From: Escherichia phage EP02SG
Sequence record: PQ301181
Strand: one strand, 5' to 3'
DNA length: 64,000 nt
Part shown: positions 1,476-63,557 of the stretch, in pieces
How the letters are laid out: each line of letters starts with the position of its first letter
Position numbering within the stretch: the stretch's first letter is position 1
The notes under the pieces: model-generated
Told to the model about the DNA's origin: nothing
Databases searched by the model: none
The model's input: the letters and a program-made list of their open reading frames with translations, nothing else
Program-made: the position numbers and the translations under genes

Positions 1476-2801
1476 TCAAAGTGCCTCCAAGTCTTTAGTG
1501 TACTCTGTCACAACATCAGTAGACTTCCAATACTCATTTTCTTCTTTCTTAGCTTTAGCTTCTTCTGCCAGTTTACGCGCTTCGTCGGAAGTGATATGGA
1601 AGATGTTAAGACCTACAAGTTTATCGACATGTTCTTTATACATTTCGATTTGTGCCAGCTCTTCAGTCAAAGCTTTACGAGTCTTGCCCTGAATCACAAT
1701 TTCACCTGTAATAACTTTTTTGATGAAGTGTGCCTTAGCAAAAGCCAGTTTAAATGCTTTTTCAGATTCAAGGATTTTGTTGTCAATACGTTTCTGAACG
1801 TAAGTCTTACGGACTTCAACAAAATCTTTGATTAAGTCCACTACGTTATCGTAGACAGCTAATTTACCCTTTTCATTAATCACTGTGATGTTTTGTGAAC
1901 GACGTTCGATGAGACTAAAATCTTTCATGATTTTTTCATGACGTAGCTCTTCATCATCAGGAAGCGAGTACTCTTTACGGAACTTCACCTTAAACCCAAA
2001 GCCGTGTTCACCGCAATCATCTTCCCATGAGATTAGACCTTTGTCTTCCAACGGGTCAAGAACCTTACTCACATACGTTTCACGGTCGAATTTATATGGG
2101 ATTTCAGTTATCTGCATTTGAGTGCGAGATGTGAACTTATATGTTCCGTGAATCTCATAACGCCCATCAACTTCATGTACTTCACCACGGAATTCCGGGA
2201 ATTCAACTTTTGGCTTAGTGACATTTTTACCTTGAAGAGCTTGTAATACAGCTTTTTTGACTGATTTAAAACTATGAGGCAGAATATTTGTTGCGTAACC
2301 GGTTGCAATACCAGAGACGCCATTCAAAAGAACTGTCGGAATAATAGGAAGATAGAATTTTGGCGGAATGTGTTCTTTATCTTCATGAGCTGGAGCATAT
2401 TCAGTATCTTTATATACGTTATAGAAATTTTTACTTACACGAGCAAAAATATAACGAGATGCTGCAGCTTTTTGGACTGTTCGAGAACCAAAGTTGCCTT
2501 GGCCATCTAACAGTGGATAGTTGTTGTTCCATGTGTTAGCCATCAATGCACCTGCATCTTGTGCAGAAGATTCACCATGGTGATAACCTAAATCTGCAAC
2601 ACCACCTGCAATTGACGCAAGTTTATGAAATTTTTCTTTATTGCCACGAGCCAAATCTAACGCACGATGAACCACAAAACGTTGAACCGGCTTAAATCCA
2701 TCAATCATGTTTGGGATTGCACGGTTTTCAACGGTGTACATCGCGTATGCTAAGGCTTCGTTATCAATAATACTTTTTAGATTACGAGAATTCAATTGCA
2801 T
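1476..2801 (-). CDS. 52: DNA topoisomerase II medium subunit gp52 (GyrA-like)
   Basis: 441-aa track ORF; N-term ...RAIPNMIDGFKPVQRFVVHRALDLARG typical of type II topo A subunit; length and position match T4 gp52. Confidence 0.9.
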   Translation of the reverse strand: MQLNSRNLKSIIDNEALAYAMYTVENRAIPNMIDGFKPVQRFVVHRALDLARGNKEKFHKLASIAGGVADLGYHHGESSAQDAGALMANTWNNNYPLLDGQGNFGSRTVQKAAASRYIFARVSKNFYNVYKDTEYAPAHEDKEHIPPKFYLPIIPTVLLNGVSGIATGYATNILPHSFKSVKKAVLQALQGKNVTKPKVEFPEFRGEVHEVDGRYEIHGTYKFTSRTQMQITEIPYKFDRETYVSKVLDPLEDKGLISWEDDCGEHGFGFKVKFRKEYSLPDDEELRHEKIMKDFSLIERRSQNITVINEKGKLAVYDNVVDLIKDFVEVRKTYVQKRIDNKILESEKAFKLAFAKAHFIKKVITGEIVIQGKTRKALTEELAQIEMYKEHVDKLVGLNIFHITSDEARKLAEEAKAKKEENEYWKSTDVVTEYTKDLEAL

Positions 2802-2805
2802 ATTT

Positions 2806-2946
2806 TCACCATATTAATGAACAAATAGCCATTATAACATCTGAAATGAAAAGCACTACTTGGATTAGCCCAAACATCACACCATAGTACAGAACCGTAA
2901 GCAACAACAAGAGCCCGAAGGCTCCTGCTAAGATTTTCTTAATCAT
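2806..2946 (-). CDS. small membrane protein (46 aa), Ac-like position
   Basis: Hand-translated MIKKILAGAFGLLLLLTVLYYGVMFGLIQVVLFISDVIMAICSLIW; start overlaps stop of upstream small ORF (TAATG); lies at the T4 ac/stp locus between 52 and ndd; below track size cutoff. Confidence 0.35.
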   Translation of the reverse strand: MIKKILAGAFGLLLLLTVLYYGVMFGLIQVVLFISDVIMAICSLIW

Positions 2947-3092
2947 TACTCGCCTTTTAATACGTTAAAAAGAGCTAAGACCGCTAAGGTACCTTGTGAC
3001 ACCGCCTGTTGAAATACTGATGTTTCGCCTGTAACTAAAGTGTTAATGAATAAAAACGACCAACACAACAATGCAATAATCCATGTTACCAT
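2946..3092 (-). CDS. small membrane protein (48 aa)
   Basis: Hand-translated MVTWIIALLCWSFLFINTLVTGETSVFQQAVSQGTLAVLALFNVLKGE; GAGGTAATTAAA-ATG SD; coupled to next small ORF. Confidence 0.35.
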   Translation of the reverse strand: MVTWIIALLCWSFLFINTLVTGETSVFQQAVSQGTLAVLALFNVLKGE

Positions 3093-3144
3093 TTTAATTA
3101 CCTCAAAAATAAATTAAAGGCTTATTAAGCTAGGCCTGTATAAA

Positions 3145-3591
3145 TTAGTAACTCTGCAGAATGAATTTGAAATTATCAGCCAGAAGACGGTTCATTTCAG
3201 TGAGTGTTTGATATTCTGATGTATGATTGCGAGTGAATGCCAGAGCCAATTGACCTTTACCATAACCAGTAGTCAGGGGTTTCATGTTCTTAGCTGCAAC
3301 AAAAATTACATCATATTCAATATTGTTAGTGCCCATAGTACGGGCTAGTTGCGAACGGCCTTGACGAATGTGAGAAAGAATTGCATCCAACCCTTGTTTA
3401 GAACGTTGACGTCCTACAAAGAATCGTGCTGCTACTTGTCGCCAATCAGATGAACCTTTAACAAAGAAGTAAAAACCTTCACGAGAACGAAACTCTTTAG
3501 AAACTTCAGAACCGTATTCGCCATTACGAACTACTGCAACAACTTCACCACCAACTGCCAGAAGGTCTTTACGAGTTAAATATTTGGACAT
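3145..3591 (-). CDS. ndd: Ndd-like nucleoid disruption protein
   Basis: 148-aa track ORF; motifs [48 protein letters not shown] resemble remembered T4 Ndd; position between 52 and rIIB. Confidence 0.55.
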
Positions 3592-3634
3592 GCTAATTTC
3601 CTCAATTGATTAATGTTTTGTAATCCATGAGAGC

Positions 3635-3663
3635 ATTATACTCTGCTCTCAAGAGTTTGTACA
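3635..3663 (-). promoter_or_regulatory. sigma70-like early promoter upstream of ndd
   Basis: rc reads TTGTAC-N18-TATAAT with palindromic CTCTTGAGAG in the spacer; module recurs at about 47508-47545. Confidence 0.4.
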
Positions 3664-3666
3664 ATT

Positions 3667-3867
3667 TTATTCGGCTATATCAGAACGTTCAAAAAGCTCT
3701 TCAACAGTTAAACATTCAGTGTCATCCTCAATAAAGAATCGGGTCCAATATGTTGGGGCGATGCAGTTATGAGTTTGTCCGGCTATAGAAGCTACACGAA
3801 TAAGCTGCTGACCATTATTCAGAACAAATTTTTCACCAATTTCAACATCTTTAAAAAGCTTAGCCAT
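3667..3867 (-). CDS. hypothetical protein (66 aa)
   Basis: Track ORF preceded by GTTTAC-N18-TATAGT early promoter and GAGGAA SD. Confidence 0.4.
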   Translation of the reverse strand: MAKLFKDVEIGEKFVLNNGQQLIRVASIAGQTHNCIAPTYWTRFFIEDDTECLTVEELFERSDIAE

Positions 3868-3895
3868 TTTGTATTCCTCATGTTTTGATAGGACT

Positions 3896-3925
3896 ACTAT
3901 ACCATAATCCTACCTTGATGTAAAC
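3896..3925 (-). promoter_or_regulatory. T4-type early promoter
   Basis: rc: GTTTAC-N18-TATAGT followed by AGTCCTATCAAAACA leader. Confidence 0.5.
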
Positions 3926-4117
3926 AATTAAATTACATTAAAATATGTTAAAGCCAACCATGTTCCGGTGAACGAACATGCGATGTAAAAACCTGTATCG
4001 CAAATTGTTCTTAGTACAATAATAAGTGCATTTTTCATAAGTACCTCAATGCAATTGAAAATATTATACAAATCATAGGGATACTAAGCAACCATATTCC
4101 GATCCACGTTTTAGAGC

Positions 4118-4381
4118 TCATATCTCAACTTCCGCGAGTTCCATATATCCTTTGTTGATAACCTCTTTAAGGTCTTTAGAAAGAATAACACTAAAATGGT
4201 CGTTCATGTGTCCATTAACCAGACGAGTTATTTCGGCTTCAGATGACATATAAGGCACGTCTGAGTCCCAATGAGATAGACCCAAATGGGTATAAATCAT
4301 CCCTTCGTCATCTGCAGTGTTGTACATTGAAACAAATTCGCCTGTTACTTTATGTTTTGCGTAGAAAAATTTAAATTTCAT
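4118..4381 (-). CDS. hypothetical protein (87 aa)
   Basis: Track ORF with its own early promoter (4408-4437) and SD. Confidence 0.45.
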   Translation of the reverse strand: MKFKFFYAKHKVTGEFVSMYNTADDEGMIYTHLGLSHWDSDVPYMSSEAEITRLVNGHMNDHFSVILSKDLKEVINKGYMELAEVEI

Positions 4382-4407
4382 GATGTTATCCTCTTTTAGA
4401 TAGGACT

Positions 4408-4437
4408 ACTATATCATAGTCCTACTTAGTTGTAAAC
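4408..4437 (-). promoter_or_regulatory. T4-type early promoter with TAGGACTA/TAGTCCTA inverted repeat around -10
   Basis: rc: GTTTAC-N18-TATAGT; palindrome TAGGACTACTATATCATAGTCCTA at 4401-4424. Confidence 0.5.
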
Positions 4438-4449
4438 ACTTTTATGAAA

Positions 4450-5007
4450 TTAAAGTTGAAGATACCACCCGTTGTAGTTGCTCTTGCGGACGATTTTCTT
4501 TAGGTCTTCATGGTCTCCCACGAACTTTATAGAATAAGAGAAGACGTCAGGTGAGGTTTCTTTGACATCTAATATAATAATGCAATCTGCGACTCGATGG
4601 TTCAAGAAGGGCCCTATATTGATTCCATTACCACCCGGATAATCACCACTGTATCCTGTGGTAACAGAAATCCATTTAGAATCTATCTGGTGTGTCTTGA
4701 CTTCTACACGAATTCCACAATACTTGGGATGGGCTAACACGTCCCATGCATACGTGTACGGGTCTTCTACGTCTTCAATACCTTTATTAACATACCCGTC
4801 TAGCCAATTTGCTACTACATACTCTGCAAAGACCGCAACCTTACAACGTCGAACTACATCTTCTTTGTTTTGGCCAGGATTTTGGCTCAGGGAATACCGA
4901 GCAGTGTCAGCAATCTTCACCTTCATTTCACTAGTCAAAAACTCATTCGACAGGATAAATGTCGGAAGATTCTTCAGTCTCAACAGTCCCAAGTTCGTCT
5001 TTACCAT
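4450..5007 (-). CDS. hypothetical protein (about 185 aa) at the T4 denB position
   Basis: Track ORF 4450..5058 trimmed to MVKTNL (AGAGG SD); the 185-aa length and location just downstream of rIIB parallel T4 denB, but I cannot confirm similarity. Confidence 0.4.
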   Translation of the reverse strand: MVKTNLGLLRLKNLPTFILSNEFLTSEMKVKIADTARYSLSQNPGQNKEDVVRRCKVAVFAEYVVANWLDGYVNKGIEDVEDPYTYAWDVLAHPKYCGIRVEVKTHQIDSKWISVTTGYSGDYPGGNGINIGPFLNHRVADCIIILDVKETSPDVFSYSIKFVGDHEDLKKIVRKSNYNGWYLQL

Positions 5008-54738: not shown

Positions 54739-55043
54739 TATAATGTTCTCTCAAATTTGTGGAAGCATTTACGGCATTTCAATTTCAAGTTATCAGTGGT
54801 CCAGTTAACCAGTTGGACTTGGATAGTTCCACATTCCGGACATGGATGTTTTGCTGCCGATTTGGCAGCATTTTCACGTCGTTCAACCATTTTCATTATT
54901 TCGTTCCATGCCGGAGGAACGAACTCTTCTTCACCGTGGATTTTATCTCGCTGAACAAATTCAATCTTTGAACTATCGTCAATAAACTTAACCAAGCCAT
55001 GATTAGTGCTCATATCAATATCCTCTAAAAGACGTAGTTTCAT
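54738..55043 (-). CDS. zinc-ribbon protein (101 aa)
   Basis: Track ORF; CPECG...CRKC motif. Confidence 0.45.
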   Translation of the reverse strand: MKLRLLEDIDMSTNHGLVKFIDDSSKIEFVQRDKIHGEEEFVPPAWNEIMKMVERRENAAKSAAKHPCPECGTIQVQLVNWTTDNLKLKCRKCFHKFERTL

Positions 55044-55993
55044 TATAACACCTCAATGGCATTTCGTAAGCCATCCGCTTTCGCATTCAGAGCTTTTAAT
55101 GATTTAGTTTGTTCAGCAATCTGGGCTTCGACTTCTTTCAGACGAGATTTGAGATATTCGCGTTCTTCTCTTAAATTATCAACTTTTTCTGCTTTAGTCT
55201 CTTTAATAGGCTTAGGCTTATACTCATTAGGGTTCTTCAACTTAATTTGAATGCGAGAACTGTATAACATTGAACCGTTATCTTCGGTTTCGCTGAACAT
55301 TTCAACAACATCCATAGTCTGTAATATCATACGAAGTTTATAAGACAGCGAACTAACGGTTTTGTTGCGCTTATTAATTTCTTCGGCTTTCATGGTACCG
55401 AGATTACGTGAGTAGTAATAAGGAACCTGGATATCAATTGACAATGATGCGTTACCATTACCAGTTGGTTTGAATACTGCAGTAACCCAATCTTTAACAT
55501 GAACTTTATTTGTACGACCGTCGCCGCCTGTGAATAATTTACGTGAATGTTTAAAAAGCATATTCACTTGGTTATTGAATTCACAAGCAAATTTATCAGC
55601 AAATTTAGTTTCAGGAATGGTAGATAACCAATCAGCCAAATGAGTCTTTTTAACATCGTTAATAATAGTAAATTCAACTAAATCAGTTTTAGATGTCACA
55701 GATTTAATAAAGCTCGGCTTCATAAAGTTTTTAATGTTATCGCGAGCTACAGTAGAAGATAATAAACGAGAACGTTTGAACCATTGAAGCAGTGTCCCTA
55801 ATGAATGAGAATACGCATTCTGAGTATCTTTACAGATATGATTTTCTTGGCCTGTGTATATACCAAAATCGCGAAGAATACCACTTACTACAACTCGGTG
55901 TGGAACATCAAATCCTAATGAACCAGAAGCACGTTGGGCATGAACGTTAGCGATAAGACCTGCAAAATAATCAACATAATGTGAACGTGTCAT
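55043..55993 (-). CDS. hypothetical protein with C-terminal coiled coil (316 aa)
   Basis: Track ORF; consensus early promoter 56022-56051 directly upstream. Confidence 0.5.
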   Translation of the reverse strand: MTRSHYVDYFAGLIANVHAQRASGSLGFDVPHRVVVSGILRDFGIYTGQENHICKDTQNAYSHSLGTLLQWFKRSRLLSSTVARDNIKNFMKPSFIKSVTSKTDLVEFTIINDVKKTHLADWLSTIPETKFADKFACEFNNQVNMLFKHSRKLFTGGDGRTNKVHVKDWVTAVFKPTGNGNASLSIDIQVPYYYSRNLGTMKAEEINKRNKTVSSLSYKLRMILQTMDVVEMFSETEDNGSMLYSSRIQIKLKNPNEYKPKPIKETKAEKVDNLREEREYLKSRLKEVEAQIAEQTKSLKALNAKADGLRNAIEVL

Positions 55994-56021
55994 AATATTT
56001 TCCTCTAGTTAAGATAGAAAG

Positions 56022-56051
56022 ATTATACTCCAACCATCCTTGGTTGTAAAC
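56022..56051 (-). promoter_or_regulatory. T4-type early promoter with palindromic spacer
   Basis: plus ATTATACTCCAACCATCCTTGGTTGTAAAC; rc gives GTTTAC-N18-TATAAT; identical module at 15137-15166, variant at 57042-57071. Confidence 0.55.
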
Positions 56052-56055
56052 TGAT

Positions 56056-57015
56056 TTATGATTTTAATGCATTCATTGCGTTAAAAAGTTTAGAGTACTG
56101 CAACTGGAGATTCGTTACAACACTTTGAGCATCACGAAGCTTAGCTTGTGCTTTGTCAAGTTCAACAGACAGTTGGTCCATAGTGGCCTTGATTTGATTG
56201 TAATGGTAATCTTCGGCCGGAAGAAGGTCATTAGAAACATTTAGTTTTACTGCAGACAGTTTGCACACATTTGGCAAACCTTTAAACATTGATTTACCCG
56301 AAGTAGAATAAGCACTTAGGACTTCGGCCTGTTCAATTGGGGTCCCAGTAAGCGATGCTTCAAACAATGCATTTTCCTTTTTAAGATTTTTATAATATTC
56401 AGAGTCTTTGTGCCACCATGGCGCAGGAACCTTTTTACCAATAGATACACGAGCCTGGATAGCGATATGGCCCTTATTCTTGATAACGTCGATAATATTA
56501 AGCTCACGAGAATAAATTGCTTTAATCTGGTGAATATTATCACCTAACACTTCCAACGCTTGGTGGAATACACGAGCAACGTTATCATTCTTAGGTTTAT
56601 ACGTAAGAGTGAACTCGTTCTCACTGATAACCATGATTTCCAACTTATCGTAAGTATATTTCAAATGTTTCATGTTAATTGCTTGAGGACGAATACGAGA
56701 AGCAATGGCCATCAGATTGTTAAGGTTATTCCGGAACTGCTTAGCGAAATATTGTCCTTCACCGCCAATACAAAAATTAAGAAGTTTCTGTTTGGCTAAT
56801 AAACGGCTGAACTCACCATTTTTAATGAACTCTTTAACGGGTGTGTTAGTAACGCATTCAAATTGAGTAAACTTACGAGAAGTAATCCCATAATATGAAC
56901 AGATTTCCTCAATCTCTTCAGGAGTCTTTACAGGCATACGGATAGGATTAGGACCTGGGGTATATGCGTTCGAGGTAAATTCTTTGATAAGTTCTCTACG
57001 TGTAATAGAAGCCAT
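56056..57015 (-). CDS. hypothetical protein with C-terminal coiled coil (319 aa)
   Basis: Track ORF; same promoter module upstream (57042-57071). Confidence 0.5.
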   Translation of the reverse strand: MASITRRELIKEFTSNAYTPGPNPIRMPVKTPEEIEEICSYYGITSRKFTQFECVTNTPVKEFIKNGEFSRLLAKQKLLNFCIGGEGQYFAKQFRNNLNNLMAIASRIRPQAINMKHLKYTYDKLEIMVISENEFTLTYKPKNDNVARVFHQALEVLGDNIHQIKAIYSRELNIIDVIKNKGHIAIQARVSIGKKVPAPWWHKDSEYYKNLKKENALFEASLTGTPIEQAEVLSAYSTSGKSMFKGLPNVCKLSAVKLNVSNDLLPAEDYHYNQIKATMDQLSVELDKAQAKLRDAQSVVTNLQLQYSKLFNAMNALKS

Positions 57016-57070
57016 TTTATATTCCTCATGTTGAAAAATTTATTATACTCCAACCATCCTTGGTTGTACA

Positions 57071-58066
57071 TCATTCCTTAAGAAGTTTTACTACTTGAAT
57101 AAGATTAGCTCGTTCTGTTTTATTTTTACCGTTTAAGCCTGCTAATCGTGAGATTTCATCATCAGTCTGTTGAATAGTTACATTAAGTTCGTTAATCAAA
57201 GCTTCAAAGTATTTGATTTGCTCAGCATGTTTTGATTCAAATTTTTGAACCGGAATAACGTCTTGGTTTAGTTCATCAATAAGGTCTTTAAGAGCATCTT
57301 CTTGGTTGATATCATATTCAACTTCTTTTATTTCTTCAACGAGCTCGTCTTTATATCTAACGTCTTTTAGTCCTGGTGCTGGTCCTGAAATCTCTTCTTT
57401 AAGAGTACAAACATATCCAATACGGTATCCAATACCGTCTCGCTTGATAACAACTTCGTCAATAAATCCACAATGTTTAAGTCCAGAGCCGATTACGTCA
57501 AAATATCCTTGACGTCGTCCTTCAAACGTTACACGAACTACTAAGACAGTTTTACCTGCAACCTTTTGAAGCTCACATTTATAAAAGTCAGTTGAACCTG
57601 AATAACGTGGATGAGTTTTAAAGTTCATCTGACGATCTAGGCCCATTTGTAAGCGTGCTGATACGGCCATAAAACGTGTTTGATTCTCGTTAAGATGAGC
57701 AACAATCCATTTCAAAGGCATTTTACACTGTTCACGGCCGAACAAATCAGTACGTCCTAGATTACGCAGGATGTTGTTAGAGTTAATCATCGACAGAACG
57801 TTAAGTTTATTCAGCGCGCTGAAGATTCCATCGGCCATTGATTTTCCGTAACCTTTACACGCTTTAATAAGCGCTCGCGGTAGATTAGTATAGATTTCAG
57901 ACGGCATATGAAAATCAAATTTACTAGTCAGTAATTGATGAACTTGGATAGCAATTTGCTCATAATTAAGTGCTCTTCGATCATTATGGTCTTTAAACCA
58001 TACTTTAATCTGTGAAGCACATAAACCGTTAATTTCATGTTTTACCGCATCAGATGTAATGCTCAT
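57071..58066 (-). CDS. hypothetical protein with C-terminal coiled coil (331 aa)
   Basis: Track ORF. Confidence 0.5.
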   Translation of the reverse strand: MSITSDAVKHEINGLCASQIKVWFKDHNDRRALNYEQIAIQVHQLLTSKFDFHMPSEIYTNLPRALIKACKGYGKSMADGIFSALNKLNVLSMINSNNILRNLGRTDLFGREQCKMPLKWIVAHLNENQTRFMAVSARLQMGLDRQMNFKTHPRYSGSTDFYKCELQKVAGKTVLVVRVTFEGRRQGYFDVIGSGLKHCGFIDEVVIKRDGIGYRIGYVCTLKEEISGPAPGLKDVRYKDELVEEIKEVEYDINQEDALKDLIDELNQDVIPVQKFESKHAEQIKYFEALINELNVTIQQTDDEISRLAGLNGKNKTERANLIQVVKLLKE

Positions 58067-59140: not shown

Positions 59141-60121
59141 TTATTTCAGTAAAGTTACTTCAGAGATTTCCTCCCAACCATCTTTATCAGTTGAAATAAA
59201 ATCTGCTACGTAAAGAGCCGTACGTAATGATACATTGCGAAGACGAGATACGTTAGCCTTCATCCAGGACAATGCTTTATACGTTTCTGCATCTGTCAGA
59301 CCACGTTTCTGCATCATGTCAGTAGATAATATTACATCTTCAACTCGAACCATAATCTCTTCATTAGAGTGTACTCCAAGGTCGAGATACACTGAACGAG
59401 ATACTAAAGCTTGAAGGTGTGGGGCAAGTTTCGAACCGCGTTCTAACTCTTTATCGATATCAACGTTTGTAATGAAAACGATAGTACCTTCAAACTCAAA
59501 TTCTTTATCAATACCCTTATCATCGAGATAAGATGACGCAGTGCTCCAACAAACTTTGCGTTTATCTCCAGTATCTAATGCTGCTTTAAGAAGGTTCAAG
59601 ATGTCCATATCTGAGAATACGTCAACGTCGTCGATTAAGAGAACGCTGTCTGCATCACGGTTGAGCCAAAGTTGTTCGTAAAGGCCGATACCAGAGATTT
59701 TACCATTAATGCTTTTGTATTTGATGAAACCATTATCATTAGCGTTATTAAGTGCTTTATCCAGAGAATACGTCTTACCAATACCAGCTGCACCTGAAAT
59801 AATGAGTGAACGAATTTTGCCATCGATAATGCCATTCGTCATCATGTTCATTACTTTAAAGCGTTTGTTGATACGAGTTTTCATATCTTCAGTGCTTTCA
59901 ACGACTGCAACTGGTGATGTCTCAACTCCTTCCATTACGATGTCTGATTTGAAGACCCATACTCCACGTTCAGAACCGTCAATCATAACGAAAATTTTAC
60001 CATCACCTAAGTGGGAACATTCAGGATTAAGCTTTGCCGGGAACCAGGTCTTTGTGGCAACATAAGAACCAGAGATTTCGTTATTACGATAGATACCTTT
60101 TTTGATTTGAACGTTGAACAT
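59141..60121 (-). CDS. AAA-family ATPase
   Basis: Track ORF 59141..60142 trimmed to MFNVQIK (TTGGAGAATAAA-ATG); Walker A GAAGIGKTY, Walker B LLIDDVD. Confidence 0.5.
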   Translation of the reverse strand: MFNVQIKKGIYRNNEISGSYVATKTWFPAKLNPECSHLGDGKIFVMIDGSERGVWVFKSDIVMEGVETSPVAVVESTEDMKTRINKRFKVMNMMTNGIIDGKIRSLIISGAAGIGKTYSLDKALNNANDNGFIKYKSINGKISGIGLYEQLWLNRDADSVLLIDDVDVFSDMDILNLLKAALDTGDKRKVCWSTASSYLDDKGIDKEFEFEGTIVFITNVDIDKELERGSKLAPHLQALVSRSVYLDLGVHSNEEIMVRVEDVILSTDMMQKRGLTDAETYKALSWMKANVSRLRNVSLRTALYVADFISTDKDGWEEISEVTLLK

Positions 60122-60219
60122 TTTATTCTCCAATTTACTCATTTCGTTTCGATAGGTCTATAGTATCATATCCTAAAAGCATGTACACTACTTTTTTAAA
60201 AATATTTTAACCCCCTAAA

Positions 60220-60240: not shown

Positions 60241-60522
60241 TTACTTATCGCACTTAGCAACATAATTAGGCATATCACAGAATACGGAGCGAGTAACTAC
60301 TCGGCCCTTTGACCATGCTTCAGTTGCTTGTCCGGCTGTGCTATTAATATAGCTTGATCTAATGTTCTCAATACCCTGAGAATGTGAGGCATTTACCGAA
60401 CCATTAGAAGACCCAGAAGTCTGGTTACCGCCAGCTCCTGCACTACCGCTGGCTGCACCCGTGGTAGCACCAACAGAGAATGCCATCATTACTGCGAATA
60501 AACCAATTACTAATTTTTTCAT
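60241..60522 (-). CDS. secreted Gly/Ser-rich protein with signal peptide
   Basis: 93-aa track ORF; N-terminal signal sequence, low-complexity GS region, two C-terminal Cys. Confidence 0.45.
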   Translation of the reverse strand: MKKLVIGLFAVMMAFSVGATTGAASGSAGAGGNQTSGSSNGSVNASHSQGIENIRSSYINSTAGQATEAWSKGRVVTRSVFCDMPNYVAKCDK

Positions 60523-60553: not shown

Positions 60554-61543
60554 TTATTTATAGTAAGAATTATGATTTTCGAGATAGACTTGTTCAAGGA
60601 AGTCATCCCAGAAACTCATATCTACTTTTTGTTGCATACCGTTCTTGGCAGCTTGTTCTGACGCATGTTCAACTTGGTCAACGATATCTTCTAGGAATTC
60701 TTGTACAGTTTTAAACGTATGTTTACCAAGCTTAACATCGAGAATAAATGGAGCATCCTGAAGTGGGTAAACCAGGTCGCCTGTTTTGTAAATTTCCAAT
60801 AATTGAAGTCCACCACGACATGCATGACTCAATGCTTTCCAGTCAATACCTTCGTTAGCTTCTGCCTTACGAGCACGTTCGCCATAGTTCTCTTCCAGTT
60901 TAACAAGGATGGCATTGAACTCTTTATTGGTTAACGTGTCTTGGAATTTACGGTCTAACAGATTATAGAATGTTTGCTTACCTGTTTTCTCGTTTTCAGT
61001 TTCAACCCACGAAGCAAATTCACCTACAGGCAGAACATTCTTCATATGTGATAAACGAATTACTGCACCATTATCAAAGTATGGTCCCCATTCATTAGAA
61101 CGTTTAAGGGCTTGACGAAGAACAGCCAGTCGAGAACCCTTGACACCGTATTTAGAAGCTTGCTTACGGACATACCCTAAATAAGATTTCATGTTAGTGG
61201 TATAGAAACGAGACCTGTTATCTTGAATATACTTCCACACGTCAGGCAAATCAGATTTAACTACTAAACTTGGTGGAGTGTGAAGCATATCTAATGCGAC
61301 AGTTTCACCATCCGCAGCTAGTTTAAAGAAATATTTGAGACTATACAACTCATGGTCCACGTCGTCTTTTGTGTTCTTAGAAGATGTGTTATTCGTGTTC
61401 TTGCTCATGTGTTCTTTAACGTTACCGGTCAAGATATCACGAGCATGAGGGACATAAATTTCTTTAAAATCGACGTCAGATTCAGGAGTAGACGTTCCAT
61501 AAAGGTGGCTACCAAAGTAGCCTTTCATAATTGTTTTCATCAT
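60554..61543 (-). CDS. Pol-beta superfamily nucleotidyltransferase (function unknown)
   Basis: 329-aa track ORF; N-terminal GSHLYGTSTPESDVDF (GS-x9-SDxD) plus downstream acidic residue (VALDML); start overlaps stop of upstream membrane ORF. Confidence 0.5.
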   Translation of the reverse strand: MMKTIMKGYFGSHLYGTSTPESDVDFKEIYVPHARDILTGNVKEHMSKNTNNTSSKNTKDDVDHELYSLKYFFKLAADGETVALDMLHTPPSLVVKSDLPDVWKYIQDNRSRFYTTNMKSYLGYVRKQASKYGVKGSRLAVLRQALKRSNEWGPYFDNGAVIRLSHMKNVLPVGEFASWVETENEKTGKQTFYNLLDRKFQDTLTNKEFNAILVKLEENYGERARKAEANEGIDWKALSHACRGGLQLLEIYKTGDLVYPLQDAPFILDVKLGKHTFKTVQEFLEDIVDQVEHASEQAAKNGMQQKVDMSFWDDFLEQVYLENHNSYYK

Positions 61544-62013
61544 TTAGCCTTATATTCAAGAGTAGGACAGACTTTTTCTTTACGAGCTTTAATGTATTCA
61601 CCTATTAATGATTTCTTACGTTCAATAGGTTCAAGTCCATTTTTAATTCGTTCTTGGTTTTGTGCAATGAACTCAATTTCTTTATAATATTTTCTGTCGT
61701 TATATTTGTCTAACAACCAAGACGGACCAATTACCAACCCGGCAGAAATAAAAGCCATGACTGCTACCATTAAAATGCCTACGCCAATTGAGGCTGGAAC
61801 TAATGTCCATAGACTGCTAAAAACAAAGAATCTAGTTAAAATTTCCTGGCCAATGATTGTTACTGCTGCTAAAATCGCAAATCCGATAATTGAAACAGAC
61901 AATACCGGGATTAACGTTTTCCAAAAATAAGCACACAACGTTTTAGGGCGGTTCCATGTACTATTGAACGCTGCATAAATTTTAAAGTGCCAAGAGTTTT
62001 CATTGATAATCAT
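61540..62013 (-). CDS. membrane protein (157 aa)
   Basis: Track ORF; 2-3 TM helices then Lys-rich soluble tail; translationally coupled to the nucleotidyltransferase. Confidence 0.45.
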   Translation of the reverse strand: MIINENSWHFKIYAAFNSTWNRPKTLCAYFWKTLIPVLSVSIIGFAILAAVTIIGQEILTRFFVFSSLWTLVPASIGVGILMVAVMAFISAGLVIGPSWLLDKYNDRKYYKEIEFIAQNQERIKNGLEPIERKKSLIGEYIKARKEKVCPTLEYKAK

Positions 62014-62022
62014 AATAATTCC

Positions 62023-62553
62023 TTATTTCAAAGTCGGGATAATAGAATCAAGATAAGCTTTAAGAGCTACAGCTTCGTCTTTGGTAAATGTAGTAACATG
62101 TGAACGTAAATCATCATTTTGGCGAATAGTTACGACATCACCATCTTCATAAGAATTCATGACTGCCAAAGTCGTGGTATAGTTTGGAGCTATTGGATTA
62201 ATAATGTAAGCACCACGACTGATACCCCATTTAAGTTTAGCCTTTTCAGGTGGTTCGGATTCCAAGAATTCTTTCACCTTAGCAACGAATGTTTTCCAGT
62301 TATCGATAGAAAGGCATTTGTCTTCAGTTTCGATATTAGCACCGTTATAAAGCCCATGATAAAAACGAGCCTGAAGGTCTCCACCAATATTAATTGCCGA
62401 TGCATGACCAGGCGGATTGAGTTTCAAAATCTCGTCTAGTTCCATAGGACAAATAGTAATACCATCATCTTCCTGAGTCAGAACGTATACATTACCACGT
62501 TTTTCGATAGTCAAATCACCGAACAGTTCGGTTGTTTCAATTACAGTTTTCAT
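62023..62553 (-). CDS. hypothetical protein
   Basis: Track ORF 62023..62565, start possibly MKTVIETTE. Confidence 0.45.
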   Translation of the reverse strand: MKTVIETTELFGDLTIEKRGNVYVLTQEDDGITICPMELDEILKLNPPGHASAINIGGDLQARFYHGLYNGANIETEDKCLSIDNWKTFVAKVKEFLESEPPEKAKLKWGISRGAYIINPIAPNYTTTLAVMNSYEDGDVVTIRQNDDLRSHVTTFTKDEAVALKAYLDSIIPTLK

Positions 62554-62567
62554 ATTATTCACCAATT

Positions 62568-62869: not shown

Positions 62870-62899
62870 ACTATAACATAGTCCTACCAAGACGTAAAC
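62870..62899 (-). promoter_or_regulatory. T4-type early promoter with TAGGACTA/TAGTCCTA inverted repeat
   Basis: rc: GTTTAC-N18-TATAGT. Confidence 0.5.
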
Positions 62900-63135
62900 T
62901 ACCGATTATGTTTTAAAATGCTATAAAGAGCTTCTACTTGGCTTGCATCCAGGTAAATAACATCATCATCTTGCTCAATGGAAATTCCGCCAGTATTACC
63001 TTCAACGAAATTACATTCACATACTTCAACGGTGCGATATACATCACCAACTGGATGCTCAGGCTCCAGAACAATCACGCCATCTTCAGAACAACCGCTT
63101 GGGTCATATAACATTACAGTTTCCTCGCCAACCAT
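62899..63135 (-). CDS. hypothetical Cys-containing small protein, paralog of 63206-63370
   Basis: Track ORF 62899..63189 trimmed; shares MLYD..G.SEDGV..L.PE block with the next ORF. Confidence 0.4.
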   Translation of the reverse strand: MVGEETVMLYDPSGCSEDGVIVLEPEHPVGDVYRTVEVCECNFVEGNTGGISIEQDDDVIYLDASQVEALYSILKHNR

Positions 63136-63205
63136 GAAAAGAATAAACCAATTAAAACAGGTCCTACAGCCATTGTTAACCAAGCCCAAGGTTCAAGATA
63201 ATAAA

Positions 63206-63370
63206 TCATCTCATGCTCCTGTGCCAACAGTTTCTTGGTTCACGTTTAAAAATTTCATCATGCATTGATTGACAACCAACACAATATATCACCACCATAT
63301 CATCTTCAGCGCTTTCAGGTAAAAGTTCAAGTACACCGTCTTCAGATTTTCCAGTATAATCGTAAAGCAT
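63206..63370 (-). CDS. hypothetical small protein with CxxC, paralog of 62899-63135
   Basis: Track ORF 63206..63397 trimmed to MLYDYTGKSEDGVLELLPE; CVGC motif. Confidence 0.4.
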   Translation of the reverse strand: MLYDYTGKSEDGVLELLPESAEDDMVVIYCVGCQSMHDEIFKREPRNCWHRSMR

Positions 63371-63377
63371 AATATCC

Positions 63378-63557
63378 TCACATAATCTCGTTAACATACA
63401 TTTGCAATTCGGTGTGCGTATCAGCCATCTTTTTCATAGCTCTGTTAATGTCGATGTCTCCATCTTCGCAACCATGAGCATTTTCCCAATCAGATACCGC
63501 ATTAGCGTACTCTTCAATCAAAAACATTAACTTAGAAATTTTTTCTTTACGTGACAT
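63378..63557 (-). CDS. hypothetical protein (about 59 aa)
   Basis: Track ORF 63378..63626 trimmed to MSRKEKISK with GAGGAG SD; early promoter upstream. Confidence 0.4.
   Translation of the reverse strand: MSRKEKISKLMFLIEEYANAVSDWENAHGCEDGDIDINRAMKKMADTHTELQMYVNEIM

Follow-up and report, generated by a model that had tools for sequence, protein, structure and literature searches.

An nrdC.11 ortholog of the RlaP nucleotidyltransferase family and the overlapping gene for a phrog_944 membrane protein in Escherichia phage EP02SG

Two overlapping genes at positions 60554–62013 of a 64,000-nucleotide (nt) stretch of Escherichia phage EP02SG (sequence record PQ301181; this whole stretch is hereafter called the window) encode a Pol-beta-type nucleotidyltransferase (NTase) of 329 amino acids (aa) and a 157-aa membrane protein. 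The segment 59000–63000 is 95–98% identical to Mosigvirus genomes, for example those of the Escherichia phages ST0 and vB_VIPECOMC06, and judged by this identity the window is that of a Mosigvirus, a T4-like phage. Its GC content is ~37%, and the minus strand carries nearly all of the genes, which are tightly packed. The order y05I/mobD.1, membrane-protein gene, NTase gene, 93-aa open reading frame (ORF) and nrdC.10-like AAA-protein gene parallels that of the nrdC–mobD region of T2, T4 and VR7, and the locus is set in the early nrdC–mobD region of a lytic T4-like phage. Here we report that the NTase is the ortholog of T4 NrdC.11, a member of the RlaP family (PF10127). It is probably an RNA 3′-end NTase, with the membrane-protein gene as an ordinary neighbour in a conserved block and not the other half of an obligate module. 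The features of the pair are as follows.

61540..62013, minus strand: gene for a 157-aa inner-membrane protein of phrog_944 with two predicted transmembrane (TM) helices (phrog_944, E=6.1e-53; AlphaFold2 (AF2) model)
61918..62013, minus strand: conserved N-terminal motif of the membrane protein, aa 1–32, MxINxNSWHY...LCxYFWK (150 diverse representatives)
61555..61596, minus strand: conserved C-terminal motif of the membrane protein, aa 140–153, YIKARKEKVCPTLE (150 representatives)
61540..61543, minus strand: 4-nt start/stop overlap (ATGA) of the membrane-protein ORF and nrdC.11, ...GCT AAA TGA TG AAA...
60554..61543, minus strand: nrdC.11 ortholog, RlaP-family (PF10127) Pol-beta NTase, 329 aa (Pfam, PHROGs and tblastn)
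61469..61513, minus strand: catalytic NTase motif G11-S12-x9-S22-D23-V24-D25, with the metal-binding Asp pair (direct sequence reading)
61289..61291, minus strand: D85 codon, in 'ALDMLH'; third acidic residue of the catalytic triad (ortholog alignment)

The NTase is 78.6% identical to the T4 and T2 proteins over 100% of its length (tblastn), and the T2 record annotates the gene as nrdC.11. The gene also occupies the same slot, upstream of nrdC.10, as nrdC.11 of T4 and T2, so that position as well as similarity places it in this orthologous group. RlaP, which Pfam describes as 'RNA repair pathway DNA polymerase beta family', was the sole Pfam family above threshold (score 49.3 bits, cutoff 23, E=7.1e-13), with residues 7–152 matching profile positions 23–148 of 249, and the PF10127 label was present on all close homologs. 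In PHROGs, the protein matched phrog_388, 'nucleotidyltransferase', with E=1.8e-126, and NCBIfam gave no match for either protein of the pair. Phage records with a tblastn match numbered 1,541 for the NTase and 1,256 for the membrane protein, indicating that both are real genes and not chance ORFs. Many GenBank phage records call the nrdC.11 ortholog 'thioredoxin', and others 'nucleotidyltransferase' or 'RNA repair pathway DNA polymerase beta'; the 'thioredoxin' label is apparently an annotation error that has spread from the name of the neighbouring nrdC gene. The original prediction, made from the letters of the window, had left the enzyme open among several Pol-beta families. Similarity and gene position make it the counterpart, by orthology, of a T4 gene that already has a name and a described family, and its identity is far less open than had been assumed.

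The motifs on which that prediction was built were all recovered. The N-terminus reads MMKTIMKGYF-GS-HLYGTSTPE-SDVD, which is the GS-x9-SDVD signature, and the general Pol-beta pattern of G[GS] with a [DE]x[DE] pair and one further acidic residue is present as G11-S12, D23-V24-D25 and D85. In an alignment of eight divergent orthologs, down to 29% identity, G11, S12, S22, D23 and D25 were invariant. The predicted downstream acidic residue, D85, was Asp in seven of the eight sequences and Glu in Phaeobacter phage MD18, and the flanking A83 and M86 were invariant, as was a C-terminal motif, G232-x-D234-W235-K236...H240-A241-x-R243. The original prediction would have been contradicted by strong homology to housekeeping NTases or by a lost catalytic triad; neither was observed, and the protein is a Pol-beta NTase with an intact triad. 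Its C-terminal half, earlier described as helical, is also helical in the AF2 model (helices within residues 206–323, pLDDT (predicted local distance difference test) ~60–90), at moderate confidence only. This model was built from a shallow alignment of 10 sequences and had a pLDDT of 61.6, with residues 1–97 below 50. A Foldseek search of the PDB with it returned nothing significant, which is uninformative since the pLDDT of the catalytic domain was below 50. A second in-frame ATG at 61540 would give a 328-aa product, and the RefSeq record of phage ST0 annotates that start.

T4 NrdC.11 has been named as a member of RlaP (PF10127), in cluster 5 of a sequence similarity network (PMC12776372; December 2025 preprint, bioRxiv 10.64898/2025.12.29.696909). 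The Pseudomonas enzymes PfRlaP and PaRlaP were reported to add one or two nucleoside monophosphates (NMPs) to RNA 3′-OH ends, with a preference for Mn2+ and for the 5′ half of a nicked- or cleaved-tRNA mimic, whereas DNA and protein were not substrates (PMC12776372). After ligation, they partly restored aminoacylation of a tRNA that lacked one anticodon-loop nucleotide, and the authors proposed RlaP to be an antidote to 'smart' ribotoxins such as RloC (PMC12776372); an earlier comparative paper made the same prediction for phage RlaP (PMC7824862). By analogy with these enzymes, the D23/D25/D85 metal site of NrdC.11 would add one or two NMPs, independently of a template, to the 3′-OH of broken RNA, and cleaved tRNA would be the preferred substrate. 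NrdC.11 may act in trans with the polynucleotide kinase/phosphatase and the Rnl1 ligase of the phage itself. In this way, tRNAs that were cut in the loop and are missing a nucleotide, as after attack by a host RloC-type anticodon nuclease, could be restored, and translation of phage proteins would continue. We infer the RNA 3′-end addition, the RloC-type target and the cooperation with Pnkp and Rnl1 from the characterized relatives, whereas the orthology, the family membership, the intact triad and the synteny pattern are shown by the present data, as is, at the level of prediction, the topology of the membrane protein. ST0, the closest RefSeq genome, encodes Rnl1 at 91080–92204 and polynucleotide kinase at 94158–95057, both ~86–90 kb from nrdC.11. 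In the unrelated 149-kb genome of Phaeobacter phage MD18 (L031), the RlaP homolog (3501–4490) lies inside a cluster of tRNA genes (Met, Pro, Arg, Tyr, Phe and Val) and has no membrane partner, an arrangement that fits a tRNA-directed function.

The RNA substrate of NrdC.11 might also be a different one. With no ligation involved, the enzyme could add nucleotides to the 3′ ends of various RNAs, full-length tRNAs included, for example in patching CCA ends trimmed by host toxins or in marking host RNAs, and the surroundings of nrdC.11 would allow for this, as it is unlinked to a ligase in T4-like genomes and its MD18 homolog is surrounded by tRNA genes. The biochemistry can be read in both directions, since RlaP labelled rRNA-sized and full-length tRNA-sized species when given total RNA of E. 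coli, and took dATP as well as all four nucleoside triphosphates, but favoured the 5′ half of the nicked-tRNA mimic over the 3′-acceptor end (PMC12776372). Family-wide, moreover, the genomic link of RlaP is to RNA ligases (PMC12776372, PMC7824862), and the NTase had no match to the CCA-adding/poly(A) polymerase family (PF01743) in Pfam or NCBIfam. We therefore hold repair or tagging of the acceptor end to be very unlikely. A signalling or toxin role, in the manner of a CD-NTase/CBASS-, OAS-, MNT-HEPN- or AbiEii-like module with a membrane effector or sensor, is exceedingly improbable. The likeness to cyclic-nucleotide signalling modules that had been pointed out for this pair comes down to a generic Pol-beta motif and a membrane neighbour, and nothing more. 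Neither protein had a PADLOC match at E<=0.1, CD-NTase, MNT and AbiEii types included, and the NTase matched only RlaP above threshold in Pfam, with no match to CD-NTase, OAS, MNT, KNTase or PolyA_pol. The membrane protein, for its part, has only ~85 cytoplasmic residues, with no known sensor domain and no recognizable nucleotide-sensing domain, and is modelled as a plain TM hairpin to which a small terminal domain is attached. MNT-HEPN, AbiEii and MenT systems, considered individually, gave no PADLOC match and no NTP_transf_2 or AbiEii match at E<=0.1, and no HEPN protein adjoins the NTase, which has a TM protein on one side and a secreted 93-aa protein on the other. In addition, both genes belong to the early region of a lytic phage and not to a defence island, conserved as they are in over 1,200 phage records, and the membrane family left a single marginal match in the genome scan of 185,579 species described below. 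The aminoglycoside NTase, CCA-like and MNT alternatives, put forward as equally possible at the outset, were thus without support in the Pfam, NCBIfam and PADLOC searches, and the preferred reading of the enzyme is that of an NrdC.11-type RlaP NTase.

The product of the upstream gene is a full-length member of phrog_944 and has the bipartite motif of the family flanking two predicted TM helices. It had been described as a protein with two to three TM helices; it is indeed a membrane protein, and both hydropathy and the AF2 model indicate two helices and not three. The hydrophobic stretches span residues ~29–60 and 62–102, and the model (39-sequence alignment, pLDDT 85.8) contains a strand at 2–4, a helix at 8–17, two long helices at 26–65 and 69–124, a helix at 136–146 and a strand at 153–155. 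The N-terminal segment has four Lys and Arg residues, the loop one and the C-terminal tail 15, so that both termini are predicted to be cytoplasmic by the positive-inside rule. As modelled, the protein is a two-TM hairpin of the inner membrane, and the two short terminal strands suggest that the conserved N- and C-terminal segments fold together as one small cytoplasmic domain. Among the 150 representatives, C27 and Y29 of the N-terminal motif were invariant, and S7, W8, H9, Y10, L26 and W31 were conserved in at least 90%; in the C-terminal motif (KAKKxKxCP), K147, C149 and P150 were invariant and A143 and K145 were conserved in at least 90%, with K142 invariant or nearly so in smaller alignments.

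The family is large. With clustering at 50% identity, an exhaustive HMMER search gave 7,061 clusters for E<=1e-3, and 2,763 for the stricter E<=1e-10; every match was full-length and to a protein of ~125–175 aa. A scan with a narrow pattern across representative genomes from 185,579 species of bacteria and archaea returned one marginal match, which lay in a metagenome-assembled genome of the candidate phyla radiation in an uninformative context, and the family thus appears to be essentially restricted to phages. The membrane protein had no match in Pfam or PADLOC, and structure searches with it returned only uncharacterized phage proteins in BFVD and nothing in the PDB.

The overlap between the two genes, from which translational coupling had been proposed, was confirmed in the sequence: the first ATG of nrdC.11 (61543) overlaps the last codon and the TGA of the membrane-protein ORF by 4 nt, and the ATG at 61540 overlaps by 1 nt. 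A −4 or −1 junction was found in all of the Mosig-, Tequatro- and Gaprivervirus-type loci examined. Such overlaps are frequent in the window, where 18 of the 99 adjacent same-strand pairs overlap by 1–8 nt, 11 of them by the same 4 nt, and hence the junction, although real, says little about a partnership of the two genes. Their association also varies between phages. In T4, the HNH homing endonuclease gene mobD sits in the slot of the membrane-protein gene and nrdC.11 is kept without it; in T2, the membrane-protein gene is frameshifted and split into two pieces; and in one viral contig an HNH gene is inserted after it. One to three genes separate the membrane-protein gene from RlaP in Gelderlandvirus, Klebsiella phage Roth04 and Acinetobacter phages. 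Citrof4, 50AhydR13PP and MD18 have RlaP and no phrog_944 gene in the flanks examined, and Aeromonas phage CC2 has none near RlaP, its family member lying ~155 kb from its nrdC.11. Across the T4-like phages, the conserved block consists of y05I/mobD.1, the membrane-protein gene, zero to three variable inserts and nrdC.11. RlaP was always downstream (+1 to +4) in the nine T4-like membrane-protein clusters, and y05I stood at −1 in seven of these, which makes y05I a more consistent neighbour of the membrane-protein gene than nrdC.11 at +1. The 4-nt overlap is simply the T4-like block with no insert, in the usual packing of T4, and should not be taken as a sign that the two genes form an obligate two-component module. 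In an Acinetobacter-type contig (L025/L085, 4510–5390), phrog_944 is duplicated in tandem as two divergent copies with ORFs that overlap by 4 nt, followed by a 98-aa ORF and then RlaP.

The surroundings of the membrane family were analysed in a sample of 72 loci, corresponding to 44 clusters at 50% identity. Among the 85 proteins at ±1 in 43 dereplicated loci, Pfam identified RlaP twice, HAD_PNKP once and Rnl1 once, and y05I was the commonest family (seven of 85). In the controls at ±5 and ±6 (147 proteins), no RlaP, Rnl1 or HAD_PNKP was present among the 25 of 47 families listed. The comparison of 4/85 with 0/147 among the families listed gives a one-sided Fisher p of ~0.017. With local hidden Markov models, a repair-type gene was found within four genes of the membrane-protein gene in 13 of the 44 clusters, nine of which represent a single T4-like synteny, and the remaining 31 had no recognizable repair gene within ~6 kb. 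Eight further contexts with precomputed Pfam labels contained mostly nothing relevant. Outside the T4-like block, the repair-type neighbours of the membrane-protein gene were as follows.

Pakpunavirus SPA01 (L005): Rnl1-type ligase, then a Pnk-like P-loop kinase
L037: Rnl1-type ligase and Pnk-like kinase at +3 and +4
L023: PNKP-type HAD phosphatase (PF25109, E=3.1e-25)
L027: HAD_SAK_2, a 'Swiss-army-knife RNA repair' HAD domain (PF18143, E=4.7e-12)

In SPA01 (1923–4764), a metallophosphoesterase gene, two small ORFs, the phrog_944 gene, the Rnl1-type ligase gene and the Pnk-like kinase gene follow one another, with a ribose-phosphate pyrophosphokinase gene after them. Up to the kinase this looks like a compact RNA-repair cassette, which we put forward as a candidate, and the arrangement in L037 is similar. 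In the lineage of L020 (5478–6509) and L035, the membrane-protein gene is followed by a gene for a 343-aa 'GDIDVLV' protein (phrog_24943), annotated as 'DNA polymerase'. This protein may be another Pol-beta-like enzyme; it had no Pfam, NCBIfam or PDB match, and hhalign detected no relation to RlaP. It and gp170 of ICP1 were considered as repair genes and not counted, as neither could be linked to RlaP or to a Pnk-like kinase by hhalign or through the PDB. In jumbo-phage contigs of 355–390 kb (L087, L094, L097, L098 and L101) and in L041, the membrane-protein gene belongs to a different conserved block, with a ~239-aa protein at −1 or −2 and a ~178-aa protein at +1 to +3, neither of which has a Pfam domain.

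These surroundings bear on whether the phrog_944 protein is, after all, a dedicated partner of phage RNA-repair enzymes, with the overlap serving co-expression with nrdC.11 in fixed stoichiometry. The protein could then hold RlaP, Rnl1 or Pnkp at the inner membrane or activate them there, use its Lys/Arg-rich cytoplasmic tail to bind damaged tRNA, or sense a tRNase delivered at the membrane. The membrane-protein gene does adjoin four different RNA-repair-type families across phage lineages, with the ±1 enrichment given above, and the bipartite motif, with its invariant C27, K147, C149 and P150, is unusually constrained. The consistent downstream position of RlaP in the nine T4-like clusters, however, reflects one inherited synteny and not independent events, most clusters (31 of 44) are without a repair gene nearby, and the L020 and ICP1 proteins could not be added to the count. 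The enrichment itself has to be read with the control table in mind, which covers 25 of 47 families, so that weak matches could be hidden in the others, and hypervariable early regions house both types of gene, which inflates chance adjacency. The state of the pair in T4, T2 and CC2, and the several RlaP phages that have no membrane-protein gene next to RlaP, likewise speak against a fixed module. On balance, we think a dedicated partnership unlikely. Several lineages do show a real association of the membrane family with repair genes, but they are in the minority and the statistics are weak; we treat a link as a tentative hypothesis whose chances are rather slim. In its general form, phrog_944 would be a membrane-anchored component of phage RNA-repair systems that recruits or regulates RlaP, Pnkp-type and Rnl1 enzymes or binds damaged tRNA. 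The recruiting might be done by the cytoplasmic Cys/His/Lys-rich mini-domain, perhaps as a protection against tRNases that are active at the membrane or enter through it. This general form is a decidedly doubtful proposal; if it were true, phrog_944 would be a partner of RNA repair in general, and the nrdC.11 overlap in the window a single case of this.

Several points also weigh against an NrdC.11-type RlaP enzyme with an ordinary block neighbour. The literature search turned up no experiment on NrdC.11 itself or on any phage RlaP, and the biochemistry of the family comes from a single preprint, on enzymes of another similarity cluster (1a as opposed to 5; PMC12776372). T4 tolerates loss of nrdC.11–mobD.3 in the laboratory, which is consistent with an accessory counter-defence role and provides no positive evidence for one. 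No relative of the NTase was found in the PDB by sequence, profile or fold search, the Pol-beta fold being a putative one, and the Pfam match is confined to the N-terminal 146 residues. In the window and its relatives, the nrdC region contains no RNA ligase gene, although ligase adjacency gave the family its name; the association with RNA ligases holds for only a subset of the RlaP family. As to the membrane-protein gene, the recurrent adjacency of its family to repair genes may make a view of mere packing too dismissive. Taken together, our results suggest that the locus most probably encodes an NrdC.11-type RlaP RNA 3′-end NTase, next to a membrane-protein gene that is an ordinary neighbour in the block and not part of an obligate module.

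The genes around the pair include the following upstream neighbour.

62023..62565, minus strand: gene for a y05I/MobD.1-like protein (PF24449, E=1.9e-36, and PF24448, E=1.1e-13)

Its Pfam label is 'putative transcription factor', and it lies outside the two-gene pair. Downstream, between nrdC.11 and the nrdC.10-like gene, an ORF at 60241–60522 (minus strand) encodes the 93-aa Gly/Ser/Ala-rich protein, which has a signal-like N-terminal segment, belongs to phrog_2243 and has a weak, sub-threshold YbgS-like match. In T2, this slot is occupied by a 486-nt gene annotated 'RNA polymerase ADP-ribosylase', indicating a variable insertion site. The nrdC.10-like gene (59141–60142, minus strand) encodes a 333-aa protein of phrog_1250 with sub-threshold P-loop matches only (AAA_22, AAA_16 and nSTAND3) and a weak C-terminal HTH_37 match; an nrdC.10-like gene is found downstream of nrdC.11 also in T4, in T2 and in the Acinetobacter-type contig L025. 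Further upstream, two small adjacent ORFs at 62899–63189 and 63206–63397 (minus strand) have in common a 28-residue motif, MLYDxxGxSEDGV... (54% identity, E ~3e-6), and by this similarity they are probably tandem paralogs of the mobD.2–mobD.5 type. BLAST detected no paralogy among the three ~320-aa proteins encoded downstream (55043–58066), and a scan for promoters and terminators gave signal at chance level and was uninformative.

For the most part, the present finding tidies the annotation: nrdC.11 would be recorded as an RlaP-type RNA 3′-end NTase, and neither as a signalling enzyme nor as a 'thioredoxin'. T4-like phages offer tractable genetics for the unproven idea that RlaP replaces nucleotides removed by RloC-type nucleases. 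The residual interest lies in a large membrane family that recurs beside RNA-repair genes, the overlap itself being ordinary. phrog_944 is among the larger phage families of no known function, and its placement near repair genes yields a concrete and cheap hypothesis. Were the link real, RNA repair, now regarded as purely cytoplasmic, would gain a membrane-associated step.

Compared with known systems, the pair has a superficial likeness to a CBASS CD-NTase with a TM effector of the Cap14/Cap15 type, in that a Pol-beta-fold NTase stands beside a small TM protein. It differs in that these are early phage genes and not a bacterial defence operon, the NTase belongs to a different Pol-beta family, no CD-NTase or effector HMM was matched, and the TM protein has no nucleotide-binding domain. 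The closest match of the 157-aa protein is phrog_944 itself ('membrane protein', in the category moron, auxiliary metabolic gene and host takeover), with which it shares its length class; members from ICP1, Pakpunavirus, Acinetobacter and jumbo phages have the same bipartite terminal motifs, and the family is uncharacterized, without a Pfam or NCBIfam model and without a solved or annotated structural relative. With T4 Pnkp/PseT and Rnl1/gp63, which act against PrrC, NrdC.11 has in common the proposed logic that a phage enzyme restores tRNA damaged by an abortive-infection nuclease. That pathway is without the nucleotide-replacement step that NrdC.11 would supply; nrdC.11 is unlinked to pseT and rnlA (~86–90 kb away), and a genetic tie to them was not found. 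With T4 NrdC.11 and RlaP, the window protein shares the GS...DxD...D signature, a Pfam match above the gathering threshold and, with moderate model confidence, a helical C-terminal half. PfRlaP is built of an N-terminal NTase domain and a C-terminal helical domain with a terminal helix that packs back onto the NTase domain. The phage subfamily forms a similarity cluster separate from PfRlaP and PaRlaP, is not beside RtcB/RtcA or any ligase, and would share their activity by analogy only. It is further set apart from the Pseudomonas enzymes by a phage-specific insert at residues ~40–65, NTNNTSSKNTKDDVDHE, with invariant D61 and D63, and by a beta-hairpin insertion at ~177–201.

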